A stretch of DNA of 64,000 nucleotides from Pseudanabaena sp. OTE_70b_metabat_355 (lineage in GTDB: Bacteria; Cyanobacteriota; Cyanobacteriia; Pseudanabaenales; Pseudanabaenaceae): positions 120 through 64,119 of the forward strand of contig JANMFC010000526.1 of NCBI GenBank assembly GCA_031377675.1, read 5' to 3'. Made by a program: the position numbers and the translations under genes. The notes under the pieces were generated by a model. The model did no database searches. It saw only the letters and a program-made list of their open reading frames with translations, and was not told where the DNA came from. Below, piece by piece: positions 5,465-54,746 of this stretch (positions are counted from its first letter, which is position 1; every line of letters begins with the position of its first letter).

Positions 5465-5526
5465 ATTTATGCGAAAAATATTGCAGTCTATTTAAGAAAT
5501 TCCATCGTACTGTCTTTGATTTAAAA

Positions 5527-6438
5527 ATGGATACACTTTCCCTTTTTCCTACAGACGATGGCTCTGTCACTTTTTGGTCAGAGACATTTCAAGAAACTTT
5601 CCATAGCTCCCACGGGGCAAAGCATGAAGCCGAAGCAAAGTTTGTGATCCCTGCCAAAATTGCTGAAAAAGCGCAAACTCAAACTCAACTGAATATTCTC
5701 GATGTTTGCTATGGCTTGGGCTATAACAGCGCCGCCACGATCGCTACAGTTTTTAATCTTGTTGAGTTGAACAGCGATCGCCTCGCAAATCCGATCGCAA
5801 AGTTAAACATCATTGCTCTTGAGAATAATCTCGAAGTTCCCCAAAAGGCGATCGCATTAGGTTTGGTAGATATCTGGGAACCTGCGATCACCCAAATCCT
5901 CGAAACCGCCGCCACTACTCAAACTGTAACTACCGAAAATCTATCTTTACAATTAATCATCGGTGATGCTAGGCAGACCATTGCTCAAGTAGCAACCGCA
6001 TGGGCGGATGCCATCTTTCTCGATCCCTTCTCGCCGCCCCATTGTCCGCAGCTTTGGACAGTAGAATTTATCCAACTTTTAGCAAATTGCTTGAAACCAA
6101 ACGGCTATCTCGTCACTTATTCAGCATCCCCCGCCGTTCGGAAAGCAATGCTCAATGCTGGTTTACAGATTGGCGCGATCGCCCCGATTGGACGCAAATC
6201 TCCCAGCACGATCGCCGCGTTTCCACCGACATCATTACCACCACTTTCTGAGACGGAAGTTGCCTTTTTAAATACTCGTGCGGCTATTCCCTATCGAGAT
6301 CGCCATCTCCAAGGGACAGCAGCCGAAATTATCGCCACCCGTCAAGCTGAACAAAATAACAGCGAACTGCCATCAAGTTCTCGCTTACGGAAAAATCTTT
6401 ATTTGCGACTCGATCGCACTAAGGAGCTTCTCCTGTGA
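5527..6438 (+). CDS. MnmC/MnmD-like SAM-dependent tRNA U34 methyltransferase
   Basis: ETFHSSHGA..EA, LDVCYGLGYN, IGDAR and DPFSPPHCPQLWT motifs. Confidence 0.8.
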   Translation: MDTLSLFPTDDGSVTFWSETFQETFHSSHGAKHEAEAKFVIPAKIAEKAQTQTQLNILDVCYGLGYNSAATIATVFNLVELNSDRLANPIAKLNIIALENNLEVPQKAIALGLVDIWEPAITQILETAATTQTVTTENLSLQLIIGDARQTIAQVATAWADAIFLDPFSPPHCPQLWTVEFIQLLANCLKPNGYLVTYSASPAVRKAMLNAGLQIGAIAPIGRKSPSTIAAFPPTSLPPLSETEVAFLNTRAAIPYRDRHLQGTAAEIIATRQAEQNNSELPSSSRLRKNLYLRLDRTKELLL

Positions 6439-7455
6439 CCAATTTTGATAAAGATGCGAGGCGATCGCTGCACCACCCGCACCAACTCCTTCTTTAACAA
6501 AGCCCTGTTCATAGGCTCGTAACTGCGAAAATTGGGATGTGGCAAAACTCAGGGTCGTAGCTAGTAATGGTACATCACTAACATCTAGAGCCAAATCCAC
6601 TGTATTACCTGTAGAATCTTCTGCAACCCAGCGCGTAGTCCCAACCACGATCGCATCAGAATTCCATGTTAGATTTTTATATTTAGCGATCGCTCTAGCA
6701 AGGGCATAAACCGCTAACATTTGCGTCCCTCCCGCTAGCAATACACCACCATGACGACTCGCGGCGATCGCCATTCCTGCTACGACAATTTGCATGGGAT
6801 CGCCTACCGCCGCGACAATTTTTAAGGGTGATGGATGTTGATCAAGTTTGGCTAATCCCTTTTGGACAATCTCCCATTTCTGCTCATGGTTACAAGTGGG
6901 ATGGGAACTATTGACGCGATCTTTTGCCTCAATTCCCAAGGCGGTGAGTACTGCTAACGCCGTAGTCGTCCCCCCCACCACACATTCACTCAAAATCACA
7001 TAAGCCCCTGATTTAGCTAATTTCTCGCCCCAGACTAAGCCTTGTACAAATAATTGCAATACAACTTCAATCGGTAATGCTTGCCCTGTACTCAGACATT
7101 TTGCAGGTTGTCCGCCAAGGGCGATCGCTTCTACGGTGGGGGCGATCGGTAAGCCAGCGTCAAAAATAAACAGTGGGAGCTTTTGGGCGGCGATAACTGC
7201 ACGGGAAATTAAGACAGGCGATGCACCTGCGACTAAGGGGGGCAAGGGAAAATTTGGATTTGCGCCTGTGGCAAGAAATTCAGCATCAGCGATCGCCGTA
7301 TATTTCCGATCTTCGGGTGTGGCTCCTGCTGCGGAAATATTTGGAATCAGCCCTGTTTCCGTAAATCCCAACACACAAGCAAATACTGGCTGTTTACTAG
7401 AATAGGTTGCGAGCCAAGCTTGGGCTTTTTGATGTTGTGTATAAATTTTGATCAT
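6385..7455 (-). CDS. cobT: Nicotinate-nucleotide--dimethylbenzimidazole phosphoribosyltransferase (archaeal/cyanobacterial CobT-like family)
   Basis: ISAAG, ECVVGGTTTAL, LAGGTQM and KEGVGAGG motifs. The start is placed at ATG 7455 because the track extension to 7521 runs through a hairpin. Confidence 0.82.
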   Translation of the reverse strand: MIKIYTQHQKAQAWLATYSSKQPVFACVLGFTETGLIPNISAAGATPEDRKYTAIADAEFLATGANPNFPLPPLVAGASPVLISRAVIAAQKLPLFIFDAGLPIAPTVEAIALGGQPAKCLSTGQALPIEVVLQLFVQGLVWGEKLAKSGAYVILSECVVGGTTTALAVLTALGIEAKDRVNSSHPTCNHEQKWEIVQKGLAKLDQHPSPLKIVAAVGDPMQIVVAGMAIAASRHGGVLLAGGTQMLAVYALARAIAKYKNLTWNSDAIVVGTTRWVAEDSTGNTVDLALDVSDVPLLATTLSFATSQFSQLRAYEQGFVKEGVGAGGAAIASHLYQNWSQEKLLSAIESQIKIFP

Positions 7456-7487
7456 CAAATTGCATCGCTCTGCGCTAAAAACAAATT

Positions 7488-7538
7488 TAGAAGGAAGTTT
7501 AAGAATGCCGCGAAGCGGCATTCTTAAACTTCCTTCTA
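7488..7538. terminator. Perfect 24-bp stem hairpin with GAA loop downstream of rnj
   Basis: TAGAAGGAAGTTTAAGAATGCCGC-GAA-GCGGCATTCTTAAACTTCCTTCTA. Confidence 0.7.
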
Positions 7539-7543
7539 GAGAT

Positions 7544-9472
7544 TTAGACAGTTGCCGCCGTCCGCTTGCGTCTACCAGCGCTAGCAGTCACCGCACCAGT
7601 TTTAGCAGGAGTTTCCACCGCGTTAACTACTGCGGCGCTATTTCCATTAGAACCATTGCCATTAGAAATCACAGCTTCAGGTTTAGGAATGACCTTCACA
7701 TTACCTGCTTTTAGAGTCACGCCTAACGCATTAGGTTTAGCCGCAGGAGCAGGAGCCGATTGTGTCGAATTTGGTGGTGTTTGTAATAGGAAGACAATCA
7801 CTGGCTTGCTTTGGATTTGTTGACGCAAGACGCGGGTGAGGTCACGCTCCAATTGACCGCGTAAACCAACCCAATCCACTTCCAGAGAACCAACGTTACG
7901 CGCAAAGTTACCCCAAGAATTAGCTAGGGAATTATCGATCGCCTTAGCAACCAGAGCAATAATCTGCGAATGTTCCATCGGCAAGACCACGCCGCTTAGT
8001 TGAATGTCTGGATTGGTGGAGAGCTTACCATCTAGCCCAACTGATACAGCGATCGTAAAGATACCTTCGCCAGAAATTTGTTGGCGATCGCGCAATACAT
8101 CACCCTTGACCATGCCATCGCGAGAAGAATCAACCAGTTCCACACCAGAAGGAACCTTATCCACAATCCGCATATAGTCTTGACAAACTTCGACAACATC
8201 ACCATTCTCGGCGATCACAATGTTCTCGTGAGGAATACCCATTGCTTCCGCCATTTTTGCGTGCTGTTTGAGCATTCTCAATTCACCGTGAGCAGGGAAG
8301 AAGAACTTCGGACGGACAAGAGCCAACATCATTTTATGTTCTTCTTGAGAACCATGTCCTGAAACGTGAATACCTTTGTCGCTACCATAAATTACATCCG
8401 CACCTAGAGCCATCAAGCGATCAATGGTACGCACTACAGGAATAGTATTACCTGGAATTGGATTAGCAGAGAAGATGATCGTGTCACCTTGACGCACTTC
8501 CAGTTGTTTGTGACTGCAATTTGACATCCGCGTAAGCGCCGACATTGATTCACCTTGGGAACCCGTAGTCAAAATCAAAATTTGATCATCGCGATAACGA
8601 CGCAGATTTTGCAAAGGTTGGAATAGATCATCGCGACATTTGATATAGCCAAGATTACGCGCATGGGCAATTACGTTCAGCATTGATCGCCCGACTACAC
8701 CGACTACGCGCCCTTGCTTATCGGCAATATCCAAAATCATATTTACGCGATGGACGGAAGAAGCAAAAGTGGTGATAATCACGCGACCTTTTGCCATCAT
8801 GATATATTTCTCAAGGTTGGGATATACTGCGCGTTCCGAAGGCGTAATTCCAGGCCGTTCAGCATTGGTGGAATCGCTAATCAAAGCCAATACGCCTTTT
8901 TCACCATGTTCAGCGAGACGAGCAAGGTCAAAGAATTCACCATCAACGGGGGTATGGTCAATCTTGAAGTCACCTGAGTGAATGACGATACCAGCAGGAG
9001 TATTGATGGCGATCGTGAAACTATCGGCGATCGAGTGGGTGTTGCGAATGAATTCGACAAAGAAGCTCGTACCGACACGGACAACATCACGGGGCATGAC
9101 GCGGCGGAGTTCGGTGCGATTTAGTACACCTGCTTCACGAAGTTTGTCTTCGAGCAAAGCCATCGCTAAGCGAGGCCCGTAAATAACAGGAATTTCAAAC
9201 TGCTTCAAATGGAAAGAAATCGCACCGATATGATCTTCATGTCCGTGGGTGACGATCATGCCTTTGATGCGATGCTTGTTTTCGCGCAAGTAAGTCATGT
9301 CTGGCAAGACTACGTTTACCCCTGGCATCATGTTGTCAGGGAAAGACAAGCCACCATCAAGGAGCATGATTTCATCGTTATATTCAAATACCCATGTATT
9401 TTTACCGATTTCATGGAGTCCGCCGAGGGCGATAATTTTAAGAGCAGGAGCGTTGGTTGTAGCTGTAGGCAT
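7544..9472 (-). CDS. rnj: Ribonuclease J
   Basis: LGGLHEIGKN, THGHEDHIG, HSGDFK, GSQGE and HVSGH metallo-beta-lactamase/beta-CASP motifs. Confidence 0.96.
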   Translation of the reverse strand: MPTATTNAPALKIIALGGLHEIGKNTWVFEYNDEIMLLDGGLSFPDNMMPGVNVVLPDMTYLRENKHRIKGMIVTHGHEDHIGAISFHLKQFEIPVIYGPRLAMALLEDKLREAGVLNRTELRRVMPRDVVRVGTSFFVEFIRNTHSIADSFTIAINTPAGIVIHSGDFKIDHTPVDGEFFDLARLAEHGEKGVLALISDSTNAERPGITPSERAVYPNLEKYIMMAKGRVIITTFASSVHRVNMILDIADKQGRVVGVVGRSMLNVIAHARNLGYIKCRDDLFQPLQNLRRYRDDQILILTTGSQGESMSALTRMSNCSHKQLEVRQGDTIIFSANPIPGNTIPVVRTIDRLMALGADVIYGSDKGIHVSGHGSQEEHKMMLALVRPKFFFPAHGELRMLKQHAKMAEAMGIPHENIVIAENGDVVEVCQDYMRIVDKVPSGVELVDSSRDGMVKGDVLRDRQQISGEGIFTIAVSVGLDGKLSTNPDIQLSGVVLPMEHSQIIALVAKAIDNSLANSWGNFARNVGSLEVDWVGLRGQLERDLTRVLRQQIQSKPVIVFLLQTPPNSTQSAPAPAAKPNALGVTLKAGNVKVIPKPEAVISNGNGSNGNSAAVVNAVETPAKTGAVTASAGRRKRTAATV

Positions 9473-41988: not shown

Positions 41989-44211
41989 ATGAAATTGAAG
42001 TCGCGCCCTCGTTTTTACACTAGTTTACTTCTGACATCAGCCTTGGCGATCGGGGGTAGCTTCTCACTCGCCAAGTCAGCCCTAGCACAAGCTCTAACTC
42101 CTGCGGGTACGCCGATCACCAACGAAGCCACAGGCAGCTTTGAGGGCAACACCACACCAGGAATACTCACAGTCACGTCTAACACTGTCACCTTATCAGT
42201 CCAAGAAATTGCGGGTATCTCGGTAGTCTCATCAGGTAACTCTCAGCCAACTAAGGCTTTACTTGCGACTGAGTTCCCGAGTATTACCCCAGGTCCATAT
42301 CAAGGTGTTGAAGGGATAAACAACAGTGATATCGTCTATTTCGACTTCACAATCACGAATACAGGCAACAGTCCTACCGCCTTCTATATTCCCAATACAG
42401 CAACAGTTACAGGTACAGGTGGTGGTACATTCCAAGGTATCGCAGTTACTGCTGTCGATCCCGATGGTACTGGAACTAGGCCAACAACAACTTTTACAGT
42501 GCCTAAAGCTGTGCCATCAGTAGAAGCCGATAAAATCACTACATCTACTAACTTTTTGGGCGCAACCGATGGCTATATTCCTATCGGTGGCACAGTTACG
42601 GTCAGAGTTGCCGTAAAAGTCACAGGAGTTGCCGTTACGGATATAACAAAAGTCGTTTTAGGTGGACAGAATACGGCGGGAATATCTGTCAATGGCGGCG
42701 CAGATTTTGTTGCTAATGGCTTGCTTGATGTCTATACATCCGATCTTGCGAATGGTACACCAGTTCCTAACACGGGTTATATCGCGAATACTGGTAATCT
42801 TGGTTATGCAGGTGTATCTGGTATTGACCAAACACTTGAAACCAACGGTAATCCTGTTAATGGCGATGCTGCCTTCTTTAGAAGAGAAGCTAGTGCAGAA
42901 GATACTACATCGATTACCGCAGGGACAGACTACGGCGATGCACCAGATACTTTCAAGACCTTATTGACAGTATCTGGAACTGGTTTTACTGCTTCATACG
43001 CTAACAGTGGCGCTAGCCAAATCATTGATGCTGCTCCCGTCAAAATCAGACTAGGTGCAAATGATCCCGATGCTGAAGCAACTGTTACGGCTGTGACCTC
43101 TCCAACTAGTGCAGATAGTCCTAACGGCGATGGCGCTGATGAAGATGGTGTCTCTTTTCTCACTGCGCTTACCACTAGCTCCACTACCTTCACAGCTACG
43201 GTTAACGTCACCAATAACACAAGCGCACCTGCCGTACCTGCTTACTTAGTTGGTTGGATTGACTTCAATGGCAATGGTGTTTTTGATAACGCAGAGCGAG
43301 TAGCTTATAGCTCGACCGCAGGGGAAATCAATGCTATCCCTACAGGCACATCGACTGTCACTTTGACATGGACTGGACTAACTGGTCTGACTTCAGGTGT
43401 TAAATATGCCAGATTCCGCTTGACTACTGATACTAGAGTACTCGGCGGTGCTGGTATTGATACTGCTGCTGGTACTGGTGCTGGTACTGCTCTACTTGGT
43501 GGTGGTACTGCTAATTCATTCACAGCCGCATCGGTTAATGTTGCGACTAACAATAATCCCTTCACTCCTTTAGGTAAGGGTGAAGTCGAAGACTATTCGA
43601 TTAATGTTGGCGCAGTCCCTAGTTTAAATGTCGTGAAGCGGATTACCAGTATCAATGGCGTAGACATCAATGATGAGATTCGTACTGCGACTACCCCTCC
43701 TTCTAACCCTGCCGATGCCAAATGGCCTACCGACGGTGTTATCAAGTATCTGCGAGGAGCGATCAACTGCACGATCCTTGCACCTTGCAATGGTTCCACG
43801 ATCACAGGGGCGAAAACTGGCGACTTGGTAGAATACACTATCTATTTCCTCGCTAATGGGACTGACGATCTTAAGAATGTCAAAATCTGCGATGCTATTC
43901 CTGCGAATACCACCTATTTAGCTGGTTCAATCGTTTTGGGCTGGGATAGTACTGGAGGAGTTTTACCTAACCCTAATGTAGCGATTACAGCAGGTGAAAC
44001 CGCACTAACTGATGCGACGGGTAAATTTTTGGCCATAAATACATCCGATGTAACGGCTCCTTCGGGTAGTGCTTGTGCAACCAACGCAGCCAATATAAAT
44101 GGCGCGATTTACATCAACTTTGGCGCAGCCCCTGTCATACCTTTTGCGACTAGTTCTGCTACCCCCAGGAGTTCTTACGGTTTTATTCGTTTTAAAGCGA
44201 CCCTTAAGTAA
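41989..44211 (+). CDS. Secreted DUF11-like + GEVED protein, 740 aa (candidate minor subunit)
   Basis: Signal peptide (ALA|Q), TPAGTPITNEATGSF, a domain similar to domain 1 of the 987-aa protein, DYGDAP...GEVEDY, and the same C-terminal module as the giant protein. Confidence 0.86.
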   Translation: MKLKSRPRFYTSLLLTSALAIGGSFSLAKSALAQALTPAGTPITNEATGSFEGNTTPGILTVTSNTVTLSVQEIAGISVVSSGNSQPTKALLATEFPSITPGPYQGVEGINNSDIVYFDFTITNTGNSPTAFYIPNTATVTGTGGGTFQGIAVTAVDPDGTGTRPTTTFTVPKAVPSVEADKITTSTNFLGATDGYIPIGGTVTVRVAVKVTGVAVTDITKVVLGGQNTAGISVNGGADFVANGLLDVYTSDLANGTPVPNTGYIANTGNLGYAGVSGIDQTLETNGNPVNGDAAFFRREASAEDTTSITAGTDYGDAPDTFKTLLTVSGTGFTASYANSGASQIIDAAPVKIRLGANDPDAEATVTAVTSPTSADSPNGDGADEDGVSFLTALTTSSTTFTATVNVTNNTSAPAVPAYLVGWIDFNGNGVFDNAERVAYSSTAGEINAIPTGTSTVTLTWTGLTGLTSGVKYARFRLTTDTRVLGGAGIDTAAGTGAGTALLGGGTANSFTAASVNVATNNNPFTPLGKGEVEDYSINVGAVPSLNVVKRITSINGVDINDEIRTATTPPSNPADAKWPTDGVIKYLRGAINCTILAPCNGSTITGAKTGDLVEYTIYFLANGTDDLKNVKICDAIPANTTYLAGSIVLGWDSTGGVLPNPNVAITAGETALTDATGKFLAINTSDVTAPSGSACATNAANINGAIYINFGAAPVIPFATSSATPRSSYGFIRFKATLK

Positions 44212-44220
44212 TCCTGCCTA

Positions 44221-44250
44221 AAAGGGCTAACTGCCTACAGCTAGCCCTTT
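44221..44250 (+). terminator. Hairpin between the 740-aa and 275-aa genes
   Basis: AAAGGGCTA...TAGCCCTTT. Confidence 0.5.
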
Positions 44251-44284
44251 CTAATGGAGTCATCCCACAGCCAAAACACCATTT

Positions 44285-45112
44285 ATGTCAAAATCATTCT
44301 TTCGAGAATCTACTCGCTTACTAGTAACCACCGCCCTACTTTTTGGCAGTCAATTTCCTTTGACTAAATCAGTTTTGGCTCAATCGACTCCTGCTGGCAC
44401 TATTATCCCCAATGCCGCGCTCGGCAGTTTTGAAGGAGTAATATCAGTTACAACGGTTCCTCTTAATTCTAATTCCGTAACTTTTGAGGTAACCGCGCCA
44501 ATTGCGTCTAACCCAAGACTATTGCTAGTCAAGCGCATCACCGCTATTAATGGTGTTGCGATTACAACTGTAGTTAATGATGGACTTGCCTCATCGGCTG
44601 ACGATAATGTGAACTGGATCTCTACGACTTCAACCACTCCAGTCCCCGCTTCGGCTCCTCCAAATGATTATTTAAAAGGAGACATTACTCGCAATGATGT
44701 CATCCCAGGCGATCGCCTAGAATATACAATTTATTTCCTATCTGCGGGTGATGTGAATATTAGTAATGTAACCATCTGCGACTTAATTCCGCCTAACACA
44801 ACATTTGAAAACAATGCTTATGGTAGTAATTTAGGTATAGTTTTTGCCAACAGTACACCGATCACTCCTCTAACGGGGCTGTTTGATGGCGATCGCGCTA
44901 ATTTTTATCCCGCAGGAAGTCTGCCACCCACCACTTGCAAAAAACCGACAACTAACGCAACTTTGACGGCTGCTGATAACACAGATGGATTAGTTGTAGT
45001 CGATGTGGTGAAAATATCTGATCCCCTACCCAATTTCTTGCCACCTGCCACAGGTGTAGGAGCGCCCGCAAATTCCTATGGTTTCGTTCGTTTTCAAGTT
45101 AAAGTTAAGTAG
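44285..45112 (+). CDS. Secreted 275-aa protein made only of the shared N-terminal motif and the shared C-terminal DUF11-like module
   Basis: Signal peptide (VLA|Q), TPAGTIIPNAALGSF...SNSV, PRLLLVKRIT...EYTIYFL...ICDLIP...SYGFVRFQVKVK. Confidence 0.86.
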   Translation: MSKSFFRESTRLLVTTALLFGSQFPLTKSVLAQSTPAGTIIPNAALGSFEGVISVTTVPLNSNSVTFEVTAPIASNPRLLLVKRITAINGVAITTVVNDGLASSADDNVNWISTTSTTPVPASAPPNDYLKGDITRNDVIPGDRLEYTIYFLSAGDVNISNVTICDLIPPNTTFENNAYGSNLGIVFANSTPITPLTGLFDGDRANFYPAGSLPPTTCKKPTTNATLTAADNTDGLVVVDVVKISDPLPNFLPPATGVGAPANSYGFVRFQVKVK

Positions 45113-45206: not shown

Positions 45207-45950
45207 ATGACTTTTACCTTAGAGCCATCAAGCGATCGCGTCACACTTCCCGATCATACGCAACTTCCCGAATCTGACGGTACGTTTGTGAAAAATTTTC
45301 AAGATCATCCCCAAAGTATTTTACTCACCGATTCGATTGAGCCGATTTTACAAAAATATCATCCTGATGGACAATACGCGATCGGGCAAGATTCGGGTAT
45401 CTATTGGCGCATGACTGAACCACCCGAAAAGGGAGCCAAAGCCCCTAATTGGTTTTATGTCCCGAATGTGCCGCCGACCATAGATGGTCAGCCTCGCCGC
45501 TCCTATGTGCTTTGGCAAGAATTTATTGCGCCGCTCATTATTTTAGAATTTGTCTCTGGTACTGGTAAAGAAGAACGCGATCGCACCCCTTGGACGGGTA
45601 AATTTTTCATTTATGAGCAGGTAATTCGTCCTGCTTTTTATGGTATCTACGAAGTCCAAAAAGCCAGCATCGAGCTATATCGCCATGTCACTAATCACTT
45701 TGAATTAGTAACTGCCAATGAAAGAGGACATTTTGCGATCGCCGAGTTGGGTGTGGAACTTGGCATTTGGCAAGGAGTTTACCAAAATTCCGACTTGCCT
45801 TGGCTGCGTTGGTGGGACGCTGATGGTAATTTGCTATTAACGGGCTGGGAAACCTCTGAACAAGAAAAGTTAATTGCTCAACAGGAACGTCAAAAAAATG
45901 AAATTTTGATCGCCCAACTCCGTGCCGCAGGGATTGAACCGCAGCTATAG
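45207..45950 (+). CDS. Uma2 (DUF820) family protein
   Basis: LPDHTQLPESDG.FVKNFQ.HPQS, GQDSGIYW, LEFVSG and WLRWWD motifs. Confidence 0.88.
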   Translation: MTFTLEPSSDRVTLPDHTQLPESDGTFVKNFQDHPQSILLTDSIEPILQKYHPDGQYAIGQDSGIYWRMTEPPEKGAKAPNWFYVPNVPPTIDGQPRRSYVLWQEFIAPLIILEFVSGTGKEERDRTPWTGKFFIYEQVIRPAFYGIYEVQKASIELYRHVTNHFELVTANERGHFAIAELGVELGIWQGVYQNSDLPWLRWWDADGNLLLTGWETSEQEKLIAQQERQKNEILIAQLRAAGIEPQL

Positions 45951-45970: not shown

Positions 45971-46247
45971 TCCCCCCCAGCCCCCCTTAAAAAGGCTGCC
46001 GTGTACACACAAGTTTAAATTGTGCGATCGCATCCTGAATACCCTGCAATAAATTGCGGGCTGAAAGCTAAAACCCGTTGAAACGGGTTACGAATCAGGA
46101 ATTAGTCAGTTTTAACTGACTTTAGCTTTTAGCCAAGAACTTTAGTTCTTGGTTCTCGCGACTTGTGTGTACACGGCAGCTTAAAAAGGGGGGAGAATCA
46201 ATTAAATTTTCTTCTTCCCCCTTTTCAAGGGGGATTGAGGGGGATCT
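45971..46247. repeat. C/G-run REP doublet interrupted by a MITE
   Basis: TCCCCCCCAGCCCCCCTTAAAAAG | MITE | (TTAAAAAG)GGGGGAGAATC...CCCCCTTTTCAAGGGGGATTGAGGGGGATCT. Confidence 0.8.
45995..46180. mobile_element. 186-bp MITE with perfect 20-bp TIRs and 8-bp target-site duplication
   Basis: TIR GCTGCCGTGTACACACAAGT (45995-46014) / ACTTGTGTGTACACGGCAGC (46161-46180); TTAAAAAG at 45987-45994 and 46181-46188. Confidence 0.88.
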
Positions 46248-46248
46248 C

Positions 46249-47259
46249 TTAGATCAAGCTAATGATTGTATCCACTAGGCGATCGTAAAAGAAATAATCA
46301 TGAGCGCCAATAGTTTTAATCACTTCACCGCCAAATTGTCGCTTAAACCGCGAAAAATTGTAGTAGGCATGATCGGGATCGGCGCTGTAGCCGTAAAAAT
46401 CATAAATCTTGCAGCCCCGTTGTTTAGCCCGTTGAATCGCCGCCCAATGCAGACTATATGCTGGCATTACCTGCCGATCGCGATCGCTGCGACCACCATA
46501 AAGATAGGTACAGCCATCGCCCCAATATATCAATAAAATTGCAACTAAAGTTTCGTTATTGTATTTTGCCAAGCCAATTTCCGCCATTCCTTCTCGAAAT
46601 AGGCTTTGACAAAGCTTGATAAAAAAACTATAAGGTTCGCTTAAAAAACCTTGTCTTTGAGCAGTTTCATAAAATAGATCAAAAAATATGGGAATCGCCG
46701 CATCATCGCTACGAAAAGAAGTCTCAACGCCATAGCGCCAACTCAATCGAAGGTTATAGCGCCCTTTGGGGTGCATATTTGCCAGTAGTTCTGTTTCGGT
46801 TTGGAGTAAATCAATCCAAAGTGTTTCCGATGGCATCAAATCCGCAGGCGATCGCCGAAAGTTGTGATCGATCCATGCAGGTTTAGTTGATAACAAAGGT
46901 TCAATGCGTAAAGCGATCGCGCCGCCAGATTGTGATGAACTTTGAGCAATTTTTTCTGCTTCTGATAGTAAAAGTTTAACTCCTTCTATTTGCGAATTGG
47001 GTGATGAATTTTGTGACAAGATGGGAGCGGCGGGAGCAAAAATTATATTTGCGGAACTAGGTTGGGGATAGAAGTAGAAAATACAACCACCAACTAACTC
47101 ATGGAATTGATCAAATAGTCCATAGCGAAAGGTTTGATAACCATCGAGTTCGCGAAAGTCAGCCCAGCCCCAAGACTGCATGAAACAACCGTGATGCGAT
47201 AACTTAGTAAGTCGATCCCATGCAAGGCGATCGCTATTTTCCAATCTTCTGACTATCAC
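46249..47259 (-). CDS. FemAB/FemX-like (lipid II:amino acid ligase-type GNAT) protein
   Basis: FMQS.GW..F, TL.IDL...E.ELLA.M.PK.RYN.R, YLYGG and YDFYG...FKRQFGG motifs. The GTG start overlaps the upstream stop. Confidence 0.82.
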   Translation of the reverse strand: MIVRRLENSDRLAWDRLTKLSHHGCFMQSWGWADFRELDGYQTFRYGLFDQFHELVGGCIFYFYPQPSSANIIFAPAAPILSQNSSPNSQIEGVKLLLSEAEKIAQSSSQSGGAIALRIEPLLSTKPAWIDHNFRRSPADLMPSETLWIDLLQTETELLANMHPKGRYNLRLSWRYGVETSFRSDDAAIPIFFDLFYETAQRQGFLSEPYSFFIKLCQSLFREGMAEIGLAKYNNETLVAILLIYWGDGCTYLYGGRSDRDRQVMPAYSLHWAAIQRAKQRGCKIYDFYGYSADPDHAYYNFSRFKRQFGGEVIKTIGAHDYFFYDRLVDTIISLI

Positions 47260-48773
47260 TTTTTCTTTTCGGTATTAGCAAGATGAATCAGCCAATAAAT
47301 ACCGCCCATAGTCATCATTAATCCAATCGATCCTAAACCAACATCCCCTCCACCCGTGCCACCAACGGAAGTCGATCCTTTGGCAAATACGGCATCGGGA
47401 GCCGCAAGATTGGCAACTAGTAAAGTTAAAGAGAGAATCGCAATTACTTTTGCTGTATTGAGATTGAAGGTAGGACGGGTTGTAGAATTTGCCGAATTTT
47501 CGTAAATTAGCTGCACCGAATCCCCCTCTGTAAGTTGCTTTTGGAAAACAATCAATTTAGTTTGTAATTCACGCAAATCATTAGCAATTTCTTGGGGAAG
47601 CTCTTGCGATCGCTCTAATAACTTGGTAATTAAGCGCGACAGATCAATTTGATTGAGTAACTGCTTGACTCTGGTTAGCCATTCTTGAGAAATTTCGGGC
47701 GTATGAGAGTGATGCTGAGCAGGAATTAAGAGGCTTTCGGGATTAGATTCTAACTGGTTGAGCCAAGCTTGAGCTAAGGATTCTAAGCTCATGGGATCAT
47801 TACTCACTACACTTTTGGGAGTTAGGGCGATCGCCTCATCTCGTTCCTGTAAATCTAGAAAATCAACTTTTTGTAGTTCTAATTGTGATGGTAATATTTG
47901 CAAATTATGATTATTGCCACGATTGAGTAAATAGAAAAATAGTTGAGAAGAATTATGTTGTTGGGGAATTACGGAATTTCGTAACGAGGCGATCGCTTGA
48001 TCAAATACAAATAACTGGGGCAGAGCCTCTAAGGTTAAGGCTTGTAATTTCGGTGGTAAATCCAGCTTGGCAAGTTGATCACGCATCACCTCTTGTTCCG
48101 AAGCTAGCAAAAATCCCCAACTCCCATAATCATGATTCGTAAAAGAAGGAATCTCTAGCTGCATCGGCTTCACATCAAAACCTGCGGCTTGGATGGTTTG
48201 ATCAATACACCAAAAAGCTAATGTATTGCGATCGGGAGAAACTGCATTAGTGGCGATCATCCCTGAAGGAACAAGAGCTTGCTTCAGCAGAAAGAACCAT
48301 TCTAAACTATAAATTTGAGTTTCGGCAACGGAATATGGATAGGTAAAATCACAGATAATCACATGATAGCGGTGCGCTAGATTCTCTTTGAGAATGAACT
48401 CTTGCGTGATTCTATTTAGATAGGCAAAGGCTTCATGAATATGAATCTTAACCTTGGGATTAGATAAACTGTCATGATTAAAAGCCGCAAAATCTTGCTT
48501 TCCTAAATCGATAACTTCTTGAGAATAATCCACTAAATCAATGTGACTAACTTGGGGATATCGCAAAATATCCCGCACCGCCAGTCCATCACCACCGCCA
48601 CAAACCAGCACCCGCAAATCTTGATCAGGAAATCGCTGCACTGCCAAAGCGATCGCAGGAATGGTCAAATACTCATGATAAATCGCTTCATCAGCGCTAT
48701 GAAATTGTAACTCTCCATTAATATAAAAAGCAGTTCCATTAGCTTGCTGCTCGACAAATAAAGAAGTTGTCAT
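47256..48773 (-). CDS. Spermidine-synthase-like aminopropyltransferase with C-terminal helical/transmembrane extension
   Basis: GELQF.S.DE.IYHE, VLVCGGGDG, IDLVD and VIICD motifs; C-terminal hydrophobic helices. Confidence 0.8.
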   Translation of the reverse strand: MTTSLFVEQQANGTAFYINGELQFHSADEAIYHEYLTIPAIALAVQRFPDQDLRVLVCGGGDGLAVRDILRYPQVSHIDLVDYSQEVIDLGKQDFAAFNHDSLSNPKVKIHIHEAFAYLNRITQEFILKENLAHRYHVIICDFTYPYSVAETQIYSLEWFFLLKQALVPSGMIATNAVSPDRNTLAFWCIDQTIQAAGFDVKPMQLEIPSFTNHDYGSWGFLLASEQEVMRDQLAKLDLPPKLQALTLEALPQLFVFDQAIASLRNSVIPQQHNSSQLFFYLLNRGNNHNLQILPSQLELQKVDFLDLQERDEAIALTPKSVVSNDPMSLESLAQAWLNQLESNPESLLIPAQHHSHTPEISQEWLTRVKQLLNQIDLSRLITKLLERSQELPQEIANDLRELQTKLIVFQKQLTEGDSVQLIYENSANSTTRPTFNLNTAKVIAILSLTLLVANLAAPDAVFAKGSTSVGGTGGGDVGLGSIGLMMTMGGIYWLIHLANTEKKK

Positions 48774-48776
48774 GAC

Positions 48777-49466
48777 TTACCAATCCCCCGTAACCATCAA
48801 AATAAAGCCAGCGATTACCAGTCCCCACGCACAGACCCATTGCCAAGTGCGATCAGGTTGGCTCTTTTGTGTGTAATTTGGAGAAGCCGCCGTTAATTTC
48901 TGGGGAGCAGCCGACTTCTCGTTCATTTCAAATTCATCAGGGCTAACTTTTTTGGTGGAATAGACGTGAAGTTCCCGACCTTGCCAAGCCTCGATCGCTA
49001 AATTCCAGAGATGCTCTTCATCCCAATAGTCCCATGTGGTGCGTGATTCGCGATTATCTTCACTTTTGTAAGTTCCTTCTGTTTCCGACTCAAAGTAATA
49101 CAGCCGTCCCATTGCCCGCAATTTGGGATATGGCTCACTATGATTATGCATTGCATCCCAAAGCCCAAAGCGAATATCGTCACCTACATGTTCTCCAGCA
49201 ATGCGATCGACGGAAATCTCTTCGGATATATACCAATTAATGTTCGTTTCTAGATCGTCAGGATCAACATCAGGATCGACTTCTCTCAATAGATAATAAT
49301 CGGAGTTATGAGAATGAAGTAACCACTCCATCATTTCATATCCATTAGCATCATCATAGGTACTGAAGTCTTCAATCGTCCATTGTTTACCGCCATAGGC
49401 AACGCGATCGCCTGTTCTCAGTCGTGGCAGAAAACTGATGTAGTCAGTGTCAAGTGATTTTTTCAC
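48777..49466 (-). CDS. DUF4178 family protein with C-terminal TM helix
   Basis: L..GD.V.Y.G..W.IE, W/MEWLL and WDYWD motifs; typical neighbour of SpeE-like genes. Confidence 0.72.
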   Translation of the reverse strand: MKKSLDTDYISFLPRLRTGDRVAYGGKQWTIEDFSTYDDANGYEMMEWLLHSHNSDYYLLREVDPDVDPDDLETNINWYISEEISVDRIAGEHVGDDIRFGLWDAMHNHSEPYPKLRAMGRLYYFESETEGTYKSEDNRESRTTWDYWDEEHLWNLAIEAWQGRELHVYSTKKVSPDEFEMNEKSAAPQKLTAASPNYTQKSQPDRTWQWVCAWGLVIAGFILMVTGDW

Positions 49467-49677
49467 GATTTTACTGCAAATCTGTCAGATCGTATAACTT
49501 AATTTTACAACGCTAAGCGATCACCTGATTTTCAATTTCATAGGCGATCGCAACAAAGTTATCAATATTGCTGAAAACCCTGAAGAATTTCGATATACTT
49601 AAAAGCTATAGCGATCGCCAAATCATAAAATCACAGATGTAAACTAACCAATACTTCAAAAAACATTAAAAATACTT

Positions 49678-50895
49678 ATGCAAATTCATCGATTAGCTCT
49701 AAAAAACTTTAAGTGCTTTAAAGAAGTAGATGTTTCCTTCTCAAAAATAACTCTGCTTACAGGTGAAAATAGCAGCGGTAAAAGCTCTCTAATATATGGA
49801 ATATTATCACCATTACAAAGCCTTAATTTATATGGAAACTCTTTCCCATTGTATTTATCATTTAACGGTGATTATGTAAACATGGGAGGATTTGAAGAGG
49901 TGTCATTTAATCATAATTTAAAAAACAATTTAATGATTGACTTAAGTATGTCTTTTAAAAACAATAGTTACAACTTTAAAACATTTTGGTATTTTGATAA
50001 AATAAGTAACTCTCCAAAATTTAGTAGCTTAAGTATTCCAACAATAGGTGACATAGAAAAGAGGACTGATTCACCATCATATATTGTTGACTTTCAAATG
50101 CCAAATAGATTGAAATATTCTAATAGTGACAATATAGATTATGATAGCATTCTGTATGATCTTGAGATATCTACTTACTTTGAATATACTAGCGAGCTTT
50201 CAGACGATTTAAATAGAGATTTGATTAACAATTTTAATTTCATTAGTGCATTTAGATCTCAGCCTGAGCGTACTTATTATCAATCTCTAACTAGTAATAA
50301 AGTAGACAAATTTGGTGGTGGTTACATATACCAAATTTTGGATTGGGGAGATAATCAATCAGAAGAATTATTTGATTTGATTTCTATTCTTAAAGATTTA
50401 AATATAACTCATGATCTCAAACCCCATAAATTATCAGGTGGAAGATTTGATATAAAGGTTAAAGTAAAAAATAAAAGCAAGTGGGAATCTCTGCCTGATG
50501 TTGGTTTTGGTATTAGTCAGTTTTTACCGATTATTGTTGCCGATTTACAATTGTCAGATAATTCAACATTAATAATGTCTCAGCCAGAAATTCATTTACA
50601 TCCATCTATTCAAGCTAATTTAGGCGACTATTTAGTTAAGCAAGTTAAAGAGAGAAATAAAAATTATATTGTTGAAACTCATAGTGAATATTTGCTTAAT
50701 AGAATGAGATTGCTAATTGTTAAAGGAGAAATCCAGCCAGAAGATGTGGCGGTTTATTATTTTGAAAACTCGATTAAAGATGGTAGTGTTGCTCATCGAA
50801 TTGAATTTACCAAAGATGGACAAATCTTAAATGCTCCCAAAGGATTCTTTGAGACATATATGATTGACACAATGGATATTGCTCTTAATGCTTGA
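49678..50895 (+). CDS. ABC/AAA_21-type ATPase with DUF3696-like C-terminus
   Basis: Walker A TGENSSGKS, signature DVGFGISQ, QPEIHLHP, VETHSE H-loop; AT-rich. Confidence 0.88.
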   Translation: MQIHRLALKNFKCFKEVDVSFSKITLLTGENSSGKSSLIYGILSPLQSLNLYGNSFPLYLSFNGDYVNMGGFEEVSFNHNLKNNLMIDLSMSFKNNSYNFKTFWYFDKISNSPKFSSLSIPTIGDIEKRTDSPSYIVDFQMPNRLKYSNSDNIDYDSILYDLEISTYFEYTSELSDDLNRDLINNFNFISAFRSQPERTYYQSLTSNKVDKFGGGYIYQILDWGDNQSEELFDLISILKDLNITHDLKPHKLSGGRFDIKVKVKNKSKWESLPDVGFGISQFLPIIVADLQLSDNSTLIMSQPEIHLHPSIQANLGDYLVKQVKERNKNYIVETHSEYLLNRMRLLIVKGEIQPEDVAVYYFENSIKDGSVAHRIEFTKDGQILNAPKGFFETYMIDTMDIALNA

Positions 50896-50932
50896 TAGAT
50901 TTGACTTTTAAAGTTTAATTAAAAAATTTCTA

Positions 50933-51415
50933 ATGACTAGAAAAGATATATTTATCGATAATAATATAGCCAAAAACTTCTCTCATCCCCTCGATCCTGA
51001 GTATAAGCAACTTATTAAATGGCTAATAGAATATAACTCTAATCCCAAAAAACATGATGACAACGCTCACCTAGTTATTTCTCAAAAACTGATAGCCGAA
51101 TATTACCGAACGATGGGTCATGCCGCATCGGGAAATAACATCGCTGTGATTATTAACCTATTAACCGCTCAAGGTCGATTAAATCGAATCAGTAACGAGC
51201 AAATTAAAGAATTTAAGCAAAAGTACTTTACAAATAAAGTAAAACGACGATTAACCTCCAATGAAGAAGATCGAGAGCATATTCCCGTAGTTTTGTTATC
51301 CGATCGCAAATATGCTCTGACCTTAGACGAAAAGTTTACCGATGACCTGCTAAACTTTCCGAGCTTTACCGCGACAGTGGGCAAAAAACCATCAGATATT
51401 CCCTATGATAAATAA
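50933..51415 (+). CDS. PIN-like fold protein (putative nuclease)
   Basis: IFIDNN strand-Asp, IAEY, EDREH and LTLDEKF acidic pattern resembles PIN domains; recognised by eye only. Confidence 0.55.
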   Translation: MTRKDIFIDNNIAKNFSHPLDPEYKQLIKWLIEYNSNPKKHDDNAHLVISQKLIAEYYRTMGHAASGNNIAVIINLLTAQGRLNRISNEQIKEFKQKYFTNKVKRRLTSNEEDREHIPVVLLSDRKYALTLDEKFTDDLLNFPSFTATVGKKPSDIPYDK

Positions 51416-51508
51416 TGTAAATACTCAGATCGTGTAGTTTTTGACTTAAACCTAGGGCAGTTGCGTTAAACTAAAAAGCTTAGTCTCTTAATATGTAGTT
51501 GCTTTCCG

Positions 51509-52112: not shown

Positions 52113-52736
52113 ATGTCTGATATGTCGATGCAATTACAAAAAACACAACTACAAAAATTAGTGATCGCCAGTGGTAATGCTGGCAAAATCAAAGAATTTC
52201 GCGATTACTTAGCAGATTTAGGCGTAACCCTAGTTGCTAAGCCAGACGAAATTGATGTCGAAGAGACAGGCGTTACTTTCATTGAGAATGCCCATCTTAA
52301 GGCTTCTCAAGTAGCGATCGCCACTAATGAATGGGCGATCGCCGATGACTCTGGACTAGAAGTAACCGCCCTCAATCGCGCACCAGGAGTTTTATCGGCA
52401 CGATATGCAGACACAGATAGCGATCGCATTAATCGAGTTTTGCAAGAATTAGCGGAATATGAAATAAATAATCAGCCCAATCGTGAAGCTCAATTTGTTT
52501 GCGCGATCGCGATCGCCTCACCTGATGGCGCGATCGCTGCCGATGCAATTGGGATTTGTAAAGGCGCGATCGCGGATAATTCACGCGGTAATGGGGGATT
52601 TGGTTATGATCCTATTTTCCTAGTCACCGAACTTAATCAAACCTTCGGTGAGATCCCACCTGAAGTCAAAGCGAAAATCAGTCATCGAGCCGAAGCTCTG
52701 GCGATATTACGTTCTAAGCTAAAATCTTTAGCCTAG
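52113..52736 (+). CDS. rdgB: RdgB/HAM1 non-canonical purine NTP pyrophosphatase
   Basis: ASGNAGKIKE, EETG.TF.ENA..KA, ADDSGL, PGV.SAR, GFGYDPIF and K..ISHR motifs. Confidence 0.94.
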   Translation: MSDMSMQLQKTQLQKLVIASGNAGKIKEFRDYLADLGVTLVAKPDEIDVEETGVTFIENAHLKASQVAIATNEWAIADDSGLEVTALNRAPGVLSARYADTDSDRINRVLQELAEYEINNQPNREAQFVCAIAIASPDGAIAADAIGICKGAIADNSRGNGGFGYDPIFLVTELNQTFGEIPPEVKAKISHRAEALAILRSKLKSLA

Positions 52737-53341
52737 GTTTGGTTGCATTGGGAATCTGAAGCTACGCGCATTGAACCTAATATTGTTGAAATAATTACGC
52801 ATTTTCGGCGATCGCCTGAATTAGTCTTGAACGTGATCTTCCCGATTTGCCCGTTGGGACTGCCATTAGTCTTAAACTGAATTCGATACACATCTGGGTT
52901 TGAAACTATGGATAGTTTTGTGAAGGTTGTCTTTGGTTGTGGTTCAGTATTCTCAACAATTGTCACCTCTGCATCAAAATTTTGCCAAGGTAGGCTATCC
53001 CAATATGGCTGGGTGGGGTTAACGGGAGGAGCTTTATGGAGAGCATATTGAAAGGAAGTGGCGGTGTTCCTAAAAGACGCTTGCCACACAGTTTGAGTCC
53101 GCTTGGCATTGCTTTGAGCTAAACGTAAAGTACTAAAAGCCTGACTCTGTGCCGAGTTCAATCTTTGGTTGTTCACAAAAGCGTTCCAAGATGGTGCGGC
53201 GATCGCGGCGAGTATGCCCACCATTATCGTTACGACTAAAAGTTCTATAAGTGTGAATCCCAAGGATTTCGTATTGCGACGGTGTATCGGCTTAAATAAC
53301 CTTGCCAAGATTCTCTTAACGAAAGAATAAAATTTAAACAT
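52733..53341 (-). CDS. FimT/FimU-like minor type IV pilin
   Basis: Prepilin motif SLG|FTLIELLVV..MVGILAAIAAPSW. Confidence 0.85.
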   Translation of the reverse strand: MFKFYSFVKRILARLFKPIHRRNTKSLGFTLIELLVVTIMVGILAAIAAPSWNAFVNNQRLNSAQSQAFSTLRLAQSNAKRTQTVWQASFRNTATSFQYALHKAPPVNPTQPYWDSLPWQNFDAEVTIVENTEPQPKTTFTKLSIVSNPDVYRIQFKTNGSPNGQIGKITFKTNSGDRRKCVIISTILGSMRVASDSQCNQT

Positions 53342-53360
53342 GATTTACCTTACCGATTTA

Positions 53361-54746
53361 TTACTTGATCCCGATCGCACTACGTCCAAAGCTACGCATA
53401 TTGGCAGTCGGGAAAAAAGATGTGTTGCCTTCATTGGGCTTTCGGGAATTGCGTTGGGGTGTAGTGGTTCCCATTCTCGCTAGGGCATTGCCCCTCATAA
53501 ATAATCGCACAGTCACATTTTTAGGTGCAACACAAGCATAAAAGCTACTTAGTCCAGCAGGGTTGGCAGTGGCGCTAGTAAAATCCGCAGGTACTCGTTG
53601 TGTCACTGTGCCTGTGGCGTTAGTCGTGGTTACGGGGTTAGGATTGCCCACGCCGATCGAAGGATCATCACAGTCTGGGTTGGTAACTACCCCTGAAATC
53701 GTGACGTTTTTGCCAACAGGAATGCGTAGTGCAGCAGTGGCGGTTGATGGTGAGCCTGCATCATTGTTGCCGCCTTGAGTTGCGTCATAGGCTGTGTCAT
53801 CCATGAAATCGACAAGAGTAAGAAATTTATTTGTGTTTAGATTATAGTCAGTAAATTTTTTCCAACTGAGAATGCTGGTCGCACTAGAAAAATCTGGACG
53901 GTTGAAGCCTTGATCTGGCTCAATGAAGTAATAGTTTTTGTCTTCTAAAATTACAGGTGTAGTGATTACGCTTGAAGACGTGGCATCCCTTTGATCAGCT
54001 AAATTTGTTGGACAGTTAGCGGTGTCGGTGATAGTGCCGCCAGTGCTGCAATACCAAGGGTAGCCGTCACTAATTTCCCATCGCAGGATACGGGCTGTAT
54101 TTGACCAGACAGAGCTACCGAGACTTACATCATTTTTGAGATAGTAGGCCACTAGCGAATAGGCATAAACCTCGCGTCCAAAAGCTGACTCATAAGGATT
54201 CTTAGATACACTGGTGGATCTACAGTCGCTAGGATCTTTATAAGGCATACAACCAAGTTTTTCACTTTTAGGATCTGCCCCAGACTTTGAGTATTTTTCA
54301 ACTGTATCGGGGGGGAAAGATATTCTTTTCCAGAAGACTAGAATTGGTGTGCAGTTGGTAGAATCGCAAGTCTGACTATCATTAGTAGGGGCGGTCTGTT
54401 TGTGGGGTAATTGATCATTGATACCCATAAGCCCTTCAGCGCCGTAGATATACATTGCTTCTTGCAGGTCATCAGCAATATAGGCAATCGCTGCTTGTAG
54501 TTCTTCTTGAGCATTAGACTTAGCGGTTTCTCGGCGATCGCTATCTAGTACGCCTACCAAAAAGCTCAACATCACTACCACCATAAAGGTGGCAATTAGT
54601 GCGGCTACTATTAGCTCTATTAGGGTGAAACCATCTGTTAGACCAACAACTAGTCGGCGATCGCGGTGTAATTTAGAGCGCCGCTTCGATGGATTATTAG
54701 CGATCGCTGTTATTTTGAGAAACAATCTGCGAAACCAGATTTTCAT
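53361..54746 (-). CDS. hpsC: HpsC / PilW-like minor (pseudo)pilin
   Basis: TDG|FTLIELIVA, DRRETAKS.AQEELQAA..YI..DL.EA and PILVFWK; position in an hpsA cluster. Confidence 0.75.
   Translation of the reverse strand: MKIWFRRLFLKITAIANNPSKRRSKLHRDRRLVVGLTDGFTLIELIVAALIATFMVVVMLSFLVGVLDSDRRETAKSNAQEELQAAIAYIADDLQEAMYIYGAEGLMGINDQLPHKQTAPTNDSQTCDSTNCTPILVFWKRISFPPDTVEKYSKSGADPKSEKLGCMPYKDPSDCRSTSVSKNPYESAFGREVYAYSLVAYYLKNDVSLGSSVWSNTARILRWEISDGYPWYCSTGGTITDTANCPTNLADQRDATSSSVITTPVILEDKNYYFIEPDQGFNRPDFSSATSILSWKKFTDYNLNTNKFLTLVDFMDDTAYDATQGGNNDAGSPSTATAALRIPVGKNVTISGVVTNPDCDDPSIGVGNPNPVTTTNATGTVTQRVPADFTSATANPAGLSSFYACVAPKNVTVRLFMRGNALARMGTTTPQRNSRKPNEGNTSFFPTANMRSFGRSAIGIK

Follow-up and report, generated by a model that had tools for sequence, protein, structure and literature searches.

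A conserved DUF4178–SpeE-like–FemX-like gene trio in Pseudanabaena as the possible core of a mobile, membrane-associated amine-modification module

In a 64,000-nucleotide stretch of the genome of Pseudanabaena sp. OTE_70b_metabat_355 (the window hereafter; GenBank assembly GCA_031377675.1, contig JANMFC010000526.1, positions 120 to 64,119 of the forward strand) we analysed three tightly packed genes encoding a DUF4178 protein, a protein with the aminopropyltransferase fold of spermidine synthase (SpeE-like) and a FemX-like protein of the FemAB family (Fem). This trio is co-conserved in a fixed order across many cyanobacteria, and we propose, with a probability of roughly 45%, that it is the core of a horizontally mobile module encoding a membrane-associated two-enzyme pathway that modifies an amine and would yield an amino-acid-capped amine conjugate. 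The complete module would comprise (class-1b S-adenosylmethionine decarboxylase (AdoMetDC)-like) – DUF4178 – SpeE-like – FemX-like – (double-DUF350 protein with eight transmembrane segments, 8-TM), the genes in brackets being linked in part of the loci.

The Pfam matches of all three proteins exceed the curated cut-offs (Table 1), and these genes are the only good matches for the DUF4178, PF01564 and FemAB families in their own genome (4.63 Mb in 566 contigs, 97.55% complete). The junction between the DUF4178 and SpeE-like genes reads ...TGG TAA GTC ATG..., a gap of 3 nucleotides, and that between the SpeE-like and Fem genes reads ...AAG TGA with GTG-A, an overlap of 4 nucleotides, so that the three minus-strand genes with the gap and overlap first noticed from the sequence alone hold up against both the open reading frames (ORFs) and the junction reads. 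The database gene call for Fem starts 26 residues downstream of the GTG start, giving 310 amino acids; since residues L6, W14 and F26 are conserved in homologues (each kept by 97% or more of the 75 family members), we take the GTG start, and hence the GTGA overlap, to be real. Ratios of non-synonymous to synonymous substitution (dN/dS) of 0.08–0.19 for all three genes, calculated against four relatives, show that the trio is under purifying selection.

Relatives of the SpeE-like protein were found in 213 stretches (one genome per species), the best 80 loci of which were examined. Full-length relatives of about 470–525 amino acids occur in many cyanobacteria, the closest named ones being from Pseudanabaena. 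By tblastn, DUF4178 lies just upstream of the SpeE-like gene in 78 of the 80 loci (missing in L073 and L077 of our locus numbering) and Fem just downstream in 77 (missing in L020, L022 and L023); Fem is encoded elsewhere in the genomes of L022 and L023 and is absent from that of L020. The order of the trio is identical in all examined loci except L085, and most loci of the Pseudanabaena type share the 3-nucleotide gap between the DUF4178 and SpeE-like genes. Repeated as it is in related loci, where the gap too is often retained, this gene order is not a matter of chance. When the 1,611 ORFs of the 80 loci were clustered, two more recurrent neighbours emerged, a double-DUF350 8-TM gene directly after Fem (51 loci) and an AdoMetDC-like gene within the flanks (30 loci, canonical-type copies counted). 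No cluster beyond the five module genes occurred in more than 21 loci, the other larger clusters being short ORFs that overlap module genes. The three-gene unit of the sequence-only reading is thus clearly co-conserved but is elsewhere part of a larger set, whose double-DUF350 8-TM and class-1b AdoMetDC-like genes that reading had missed.

A sample of 251 genomes from the phylum was searched with the Fem and SpeE-like proteins (Fem threshold E ≤ 1e-20). Ten genomes contained Fem, and it is exactly these ten in which the SpeE-like protein matches most strongly (E ≤ 1.7e-47), the coordinates of the two being adjacent in every case; the other 241 genomes of the sample contained no Fem at this threshold. 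The module is therefore present in only about 4% of the sampled phylum genomes, and two of the ten genomes that bear it belong to other classes, where the SpeE-like gene and Fem are adjacent too. The non-cyanobacterium Geomonas sp. Red32 carries AdoMetDC–DUF4178–SpeE-like–Fem–DUF350 in a row (L081, about 4957–9349); among 121 genomes sampled from its order, no other has this Fem. Its five-gene module was probably acquired horizontally, and the presence of the complete set in the lone Fem bearer of that sample argues that the module moves as a unit. Being co-conserved and phyletically locked, the trio can be regarded as a functional unit; the claim to that effect made from the sequence alone is borne out both by the 80 loci and by the ten-out-of-ten lock in the phylum sample.

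In the AlphaFold2 (AF2) model of the SpeE-like protein a confidently modelled catalytic domain (about residues 1–285) is followed by a low-confidence helical linker and then by C-terminal hydrophobic helices. The domain is similar in fold to PDB 1uir (Foldseek E 6e-19, TMt 0.70 over about 285 residues) and to Synechococcus SpeE (TMt up to 0.77). In the C-terminal part of about 220 residues, hydrophobic helices flank a conserved A-N-L-x-x-P-D-x-V-F-A-K-G motif; one 19-residue window with a mean Kyte–Doolittle (KD) hydropathy of at least 1.6 is located at 440–458, and the model has helices at 438–457 and 480–500, the second being weaker by hydropathy. A search of the ESM Atlas with residues 286–505 gave no usable match.

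In canonical SpeE the Asp of the GGGDG motif selects decarboxylated S-adenosylmethionine (dcSAM) over S-adenosylmethionine (SAM), the first Asp of the DxxDP motif serves in catalysis and the far amino group of the diamine acceptor is held by the second. In the window family, each of the residues Q23, D28-E29, Y32-H33-E34, G59–G63 (GGGDG), D82 and D142 is retained by 97% or more of 81 sequences, D62 and D142 being present in all 81. The DLTDP of Thermus thermophilus SpeE aligns to DFTYP in the window protein, and position 145, that of the second Asp, is occupied by Y (59 sequences), F (10), C (9) or S (2) and never by D among the 81, while an N-terminally membrane-fused relative with no Fem neighbour retains DLPDP. 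With GGGDG and D142 kept and the second Asp lost, the catalytic machinery and a dcSAM-type pocket would therefore be preserved and the diamine anchor gone. The best NCBIfam match is NF002956/PRK03612 over profile positions 262–513, scoring 210 bits where the cut-off is 472, and the scores with other equivalogs also fall under their cut-offs (137 versus 537, 107.5 versus 260 and 98.9 versus 249.6 bits). Residue 25 (about 48699–48701 in the window) is His in all 28 Pseudanabaena-type sequences and Asp in 51 of the 53 others. This switch was rejected as a marker of a changed donor: the His-bearing exceptions, L025 and L045, adjoin an AdoMetDC-like gene, and the change is a single phylogenetic event.

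The FemAB match of the Fem protein falls in two stretches, in a two-domain architecture. Over its full length the family profile aligns with Staphylococcus aureus FmhB (PDB 6snr; E 7.8e-26), covering FmhB residues 8–234 and 303–400 and skipping 235–302, the coiled-coil insertion. The motif F305-K306-x-x-F309-G310-G311, invariant in 37 sequences and kept in at least 97% of 75, aligns with 'FKKVWG' of FmhB, and we take its lysine to match the one that is essential or catalytic in Weissella FemX. Enzymes of the FemABX type form an amide from aminoacyl-tRNA onto a primary amine. With 73 columns conserved in at least 97% of the 75 sequences and a mean column identity of 64%, Fem is the most conserved member of the trio (SpeE-like 52%, DUF4178 50%). 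It nevertheless scores far under the NCBIfam equivalogs, with 50 bits against a cut-off of 500 for FemX and 48.6 against 260 for the PEP-CTERM FemAB. No membrane window was detected by hydropathy (maximum KD 1.16, threshold 1.6), and the protein is predicted to be soluble.

The DUF4178 protein matches PF13785 over profile positions 2–136 of 136 (54.1 bits versus a cut-off of 25). Its AF2 model (predicted local distance difference test score of 82) consists of a two-lobed all-beta domain, predicted to be cytoplasmic, and a C-terminal tail-anchor helix at 207–226, and hydropathy finds one 19-residue window with a mean KD of at least 1.6 at the C-terminus (211–229). The two C-terminal membrane anchors of the sequence-only reading are thus visible, by hydropathy and in the AF2 models, as the hydrophobic ends of this protein and of its SpeE-like partner, and membrane association of both is plausible. 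An alignment of 48 sequences contains a conserved R-x-TWDYWD...NLAxEA motif; its invariant residues are mostly aromatic and acidic, and none is a lysine. Foldseek returned nothing at E ≤ 0.001 against the PDB, and in the ESM Atlas a single unnamed cluster matched at 0.81, which we treat as a lead. The predicted complex of the SpeE-like and DUF4178 proteins scored 0.02 (mark 0.32), which is evidence neither for nor against an interaction. The module-linked DUF350 product is a double-DUF350 protein of 289 amino acids (PF03994 E 5e-46).

The linked AdoMetDC-like proteins are of about 119 amino acids, match PF02675 (E 1e-16 to 2e-20) and keep an AESH...H...WPE...C pattern, which we take to be the self-cleavage and active-site pattern of class-1b AdoMetDC. 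Several Nostocales genomes have no AdoMetDC homologue besides the module-linked copy, which fits a dedicated role, and PF02675 is present in 27 of 28 module-bearing genomes outside the Pseudanabaena type, the exception being a metagenome-assembled genome (MAG) known from a 2.5-kb contig. The Pseudanabaena type itself was delimited by name and SpeE-like similarity, independently of AdoMetDC content.

On these grounds we propose a pathway located at the cytoplasmic face of a membrane, of which both chemistries, the order of the steps, the topology and the roles given to DUF4178 and DUF350 are what we infer from the gene families and their conservation. The SpeE-like enzyme, tethered to the membrane by its C-terminal helices, would alkylate an amine acceptor other than a simple diamine, one without a second ammonium group, and in lineages where the AdoMetDC-like gene is linked, the aminopropyl group would come from dcSAM. 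In the next step the soluble FemX-like enzyme would amide-link an amino acid from aminoacyl-tRNA to a primary amine of the intermediate. Most simply this would be the newly added aminopropyl amine, which is similar to the side chain of lysine, the usual target of acylation by FemX. The tail-anchored DUF4178 protein, with its aromatic and acidic conserved surface, and the DUF350 protein may serve as partners in the membrane, binding, holding or moving the product. In other DUF350 operons, AdoMetDC and polyamine genes stand together with a different amide-forming enzyme, an ATP-grasp ligase similar to glutathionylspermidine synthetase (PMC11237479). By analogy, these operons lend support to a logic of 'amine plus amide-forming enzyme', in which a tRNA-dependent transferase would play the second part here.

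Several observations weigh against this proposal. PF02675 AdoMetDC was detected in none of the 28 Pseudanabaena-type genomes, i.e. the window's own and 27 module-bearing relatives, among them one complete chromosome. The own genome, at the completeness given above, has no PF02675 match and no match to a module-type AdoMetDC query protein. A search for class-2 AdoMetDC (PF01536) also gave no match, but its control matched nowhere, so this search is uninformative. Where the linked AdoMetDC-like proteins do occur they are divergent (E 1e-16 to 1e-20), and class-1b AdoMetDC homologues that have turned into ornithine or arginine decarboxylases have been described (PMC10407285); for these two reasons the supply of dcSAM by the linked gene can only be presumed. 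The 289-amino-acid double-DUF350 8-TM homologue of the own genome is unlinked (G000:C147; L086, 1072–1941, minus strand), as are copies 80–98% identical to it in 11 of the 14 closest relatives' genomes, and a search of 26 genomes failed to detect DUF350 in 10, many of them incomplete MAGs. In a wide VIA-align search for the fold of DUF4178 the best Z was 6.4, at noise level, under the noise mark of about 8.

Given the lack of a visible donor source, in the own genome and in all 27 Pseudanabaena-type relatives, the aminopropylation step of the sequence-only reading needs to be reconsidered for this genome. The trio of this AdoMetDC-less clade is nonetheless under selection, with dN/dS of 0.08–0.19 and unchanged active-site motifs. 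A bolder form of the proposal, which we regard as doubtful, is that a non-polyamine amine is alkylated and capped from aminoacyl-tRNA to give a novel membrane conjugate, the donor in the AdoMetDC-less Pseudanabaena lineage being SAM itself (as an aminocarboxypropyl donor) or dcSAM from an unrecognised decarboxylase. Genomes of the P. biceps type, which have no AdoMetDC, carry an alanine-racemase-fold, pyridoxal-phosphate (PLP)-dependent decarboxylase gene divergently upstream of DUF4178 in five loci (L024, 4047–5147, minus strand; L026, L029, L030 and L058). Its product matches nspC (E 5e-12) and lysA (E 2e-7), both far under the cut-offs, and could be a substitute decarboxylase. As an explanation for the window, replacement of AdoMetDC by such an nspC/lysA-like enzyme was set aside, the gene not being found in the window's genome.

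The polyamine background of the genome bears on what the SpeE-like enzyme makes. The genome has no canonical SpeE, i.e. no other good PF01564 match, and nspC (TIGR01047) was not found in it. The sole other PF01564 match, at 5932–6156 on the plus strand of the window (G000:C104:6051–6275), has an E of 5.4e-4, under the cut-off, in a frame of 358 amino acids and probably represents another methyltransferase-fold protein, not SpeE. A gene of the deoxyhypusine synthase family is present (PF01916 E about 1e-98; G000:C276:246–1130, L094). This family presumably supplies the cyanobacterial homospermidine synthase, which the encoded protein probably is, and the bulk polyamine is likely to be homospermidine. 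With the acceptor Asp lost and neither AdoMetDC nor a canonical SpeE in the genome, production of free spermidine by the SpeE-like enzyme appears unlikely, and its description from the sequence alone as atypical and not a spermidine-forming enzyme agrees with these findings.

The sequence-only reading had placed the substrate in the envelope (peptidoglycan, lipid or protein), and in the most explicit version of this idea the acceptor would be a lipid II-like peptidoglycan precursor or another envelope amine to which Fem, like classical FemX, attaches a branch residue. Among solved structures, Fem is indeed closest to the lipid II:glycine glycyltransferase FmhB (6snr) and FemX, all parts other than Fem are membrane-anchored, and a gene for an LdcA-like muramoyltetrapeptide carboxypeptidase (NF008424 E 2.5e-44, under cut-off) follows Fem in four related loci (L010, 8568–9467, plus strand; L012, L016 and L017). 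This neighbour, however, is restricted to one shallow clade, the 80 loci share no murein-synthesis gene as a conserved neighbour, and the score of Fem against the FemX equivalog is a tenth of the cut-off. The presence of the module in so few of the sampled phylum genomes argues that it does not belong to core wall synthesis, and cyanobacterial murein is directly cross-linked. Our findings offer no link between the pathway and peptidoglycan, a lipid or a protein of the envelope, and we consider this version unlikely.

Another candidate, which we likewise hold to be improbable, is an aminoacyl-polyamine, in which the SpeE-like and DUF4178 proteins would present an existing polyamine (e.g. homospermidine) for aminoacylation by Fem, SpeE-like catalysis being dispensable or altered where AdoMetDC is missing. 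The absence of AdoMetDC from all 28 Pseudanabaena-type genomes, the PF01916 protein of the own genome and the stronger conservation of Fem compared with its two partners all fit such a scheme, but the AdoMetDC-less clade likewise shows no variation in GGGDG and D142, and the dN/dS of the SpeE-like gene there is about 0.16–0.19, which together suit a working enzyme better than a scaffold. Very unlikely, in our opinion, is modification of a protein, in which a protein amine, possibly on a partner within the module, would be alkylated and then aminoacylated in the manner of elongation factor P (EF-P)/eIF5A or of the L/F-transferase. The Fem fold includes tRNA-dependent protein N-terminal transferases, and the N-terminal barrel of DUF4178 best matches EF-P domain I, eIF5A and Tudor-like barrels, but with Z of 5.8–6.2 that are under the noise mark of about 8 and in a class of small beta-barrels that is ubiquitous; moreover, DUF4178 is without an invariant lysine and no candidate target is defined. 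An ordinary spermidine synthase with an unrelated Fem neighbour is strongly disfavoured: the database names ('spermidine/spermine synthase' and 'lipid II:glycine glycyltransferase FemX') and the status of the SpeE-like gene as the only good PF01564 match would suit it, but AdoMetDC is absent from the genome, the acceptor Asp is lost, the protein scores under every SpeE equivalog cut-off, and Fem co-occurs with and adjoins the SpeE-like gene in 10 of 10 genomes against none of the 241 others sampled.

Table 1. Features of the trio locus, in positions of the window.
Feature	Position	Strand	Basis
DUF4178 protein, 229 aa	48777..49466	-	Pfam PF13785 E 2.3e-14
SpeE-like aminopropyltransferase-fold protein, 505 aa	47256..48773	-	Pfam PF01564 (Spermine_synth) E 5.2e-26
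FemX-like protein of FemAB family, 336 aa	46249..47259	-	Pfam PF02388 E 1.3e-30 + PF13480 (Acetyltransf_6)
3-nt spacer GTC, DUF4178 stop to SpeE-like ATG	48774..48776	-	sequence read directly
GTGA stop/start overlap, SpeE-like gene / Fem gene	47256..47259	-	sequence read directly
Terminator-like hairpin, ~160 nt downstream of Fem stop; weak call	46072..46089	-	consensus scan

The hairpin of Table 1 is not significant on its own, the promoter and terminator scan of the region giving counts equal to those of shuffled sequences (6 terminator-like sites versus 4.4 ± 2.1). Directly downstream of Fem, at 45207–45950 on the plus strand, lies a gene for a Uma2-family putative restriction endonuclease (PF05685 E 1.2e-13), which is not a conserved neighbour in related loci. 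Two adjacent secreted-looking proteins of 740 and 275 amino acids are encoded at 41989–45112 (plus strand); they have similar N-terminal signal-like segments, a GEVED domain in the larger one and near-identical C-terminal endings (...SYGFIRFKATLK and ...SYGFVRFQVKVK), a shared ending that may be a sorting signal. Divergent from the module, positions 49500–51500 form an island of low guanine-plus-cytosine content (0.29–0.33 versus about 0.44 around it) encoding a 405-amino-acid AAA_15/DUF3696 ATPase (PADLOC NsnB E 1.1e-63, also HEC-03B and PDC-M55A) followed by a 160-amino-acid ORF without family, a probable acquired anti-phage defence pair. Two pilin-like genes at 52733–54746 (minus strand) have N-terminal methylation-type motifs, with PF07963 on the first.

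SpeE-like proteins that are tethered to a membrane and linked to AdoMetDC, DUF350 and DUF4178 occur widely. If the bolder form of the proposal given above is correct, the trio would be the first case in which aminopropyl-type transfer is coupled to tRNA-dependent aminoacylation and would offer a handle on a polyamine-independent role of AdoMetDC and of membrane spermidine synthase (SpdSyn)-like proteins. The linked Fem chemistry would constrain the product, by way of an amine-bearing intermediate that ends up N-aminoacylated, and provides a second, easily assayed enzyme with which to trap that intermediate, while the AdoMetDC-less lineage with its trio under selection constitutes a natural experiment on the donor of the SpeE-like enzyme. 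The tight coupling of two well-understood chemistries would thereby make the functionally unsolved question of membrane SpeE-like proteins approachable by experiment. Hundreds of cyanobacterial database entries named 'spermidine synthase' or 'lipid II:glycine glycyltransferase FemX' are probably misnamed.

Compared with canonical SpeE (PDB 1uir/3anx and 6qmm), the window protein shares the fold at the TMt of 0.70–0.77 noted above, together with the Q, Y-H-E and GGGDG motifs, the ribose-binding acidic residue and the first Asp, but it has DFT(Y/F/C/S)P in place of DxxDP, about 220 additional C-terminal residues that include membrane helices, and a genome without AdoMetDC. The window Fem resembles FemX/FmhB (PDB 6snr, 1ne9 and 4ii9) in its FemAB family, two domains and FK..FGG lysine, and Weissella FemX also in being without the coiled-coil arm; in contrast to them it is far under the equivalog cut-offs and is paired with a SpeE-like gene, not with murein genes. 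Operons in which AdoMetDC is linked to membrane SpdSyn-like, DUF350 and DUF4178 genes were reportedly noted by Li et al. in 2019. In the PA4773–PA4774 pair of Pseudomonas aeruginosa a class-1b AdoMetDC likewise stands beside an atypical aminopropyltransferase, SpeE2, apart from housekeeping polyamine synthesis, but SpeE2 is a soluble thermospermine/norspermidine synthase that acts on polyamines, with neither Fem nor DUF4178 alongside, as far as the accessible part of the paper goes (PMC11107197).

The nearest known system is the association of DUF4178, membrane SpeE-like proteins, DUF350 and AdoMetDC, which is in print without Fem, together with the suggestion that membrane SpeE-like proteins aminopropylate a substrate other than putrescine, in PMC11237479. 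No paper that we located connects this module with a Fem enzyme, an apparent mention of DUF350 in PMC12730115 proved to be DUF3509, and the terms 'FemAB', 'FemX', 'aminoacyl' and 'GNAT' are not in the accessible text of that study, whose supplementary tables could list such variants. Four traits of the window module were met in none of the literature covered: a FemX-like partner that is obligate, a membrane tether at the C-terminal and not the N-terminal end, the loss of the acceptor Asp across the family and an entire lineage in which the module persists without AdoMetDC. Neighbours of the PspA and CesT-Tir types were not conserved in our ORF clustering, Pfam not having been run on every neighbour. 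Both the published operon type and the window have a membrane-tied SpeE-like domain with a DUF4178 neighbour, and NF002956, whose SpeE domain gives the best NCBIfam match of the window protein, represents the membrane-fused SpeE class. The published type, as described in PMC11237479, has a YjfL/DUF350 multi-TM neighbour and often a linked class-1b AdoMetDC, whereas DUF350 is unlinked and AdoMetDC absent in the window's genome. The SpeE domain of the published type is fused at its N-terminus to a seven-transmembrane (7TM)/major facilitator superfamily (MFS) region, again as described there, whereas the window protein is catalytic from residue 1 and bears its hydrophobic helices at the C-terminus, and the second Asp of DxxDP that the fused-type relative keeps has been lost throughout the window family.

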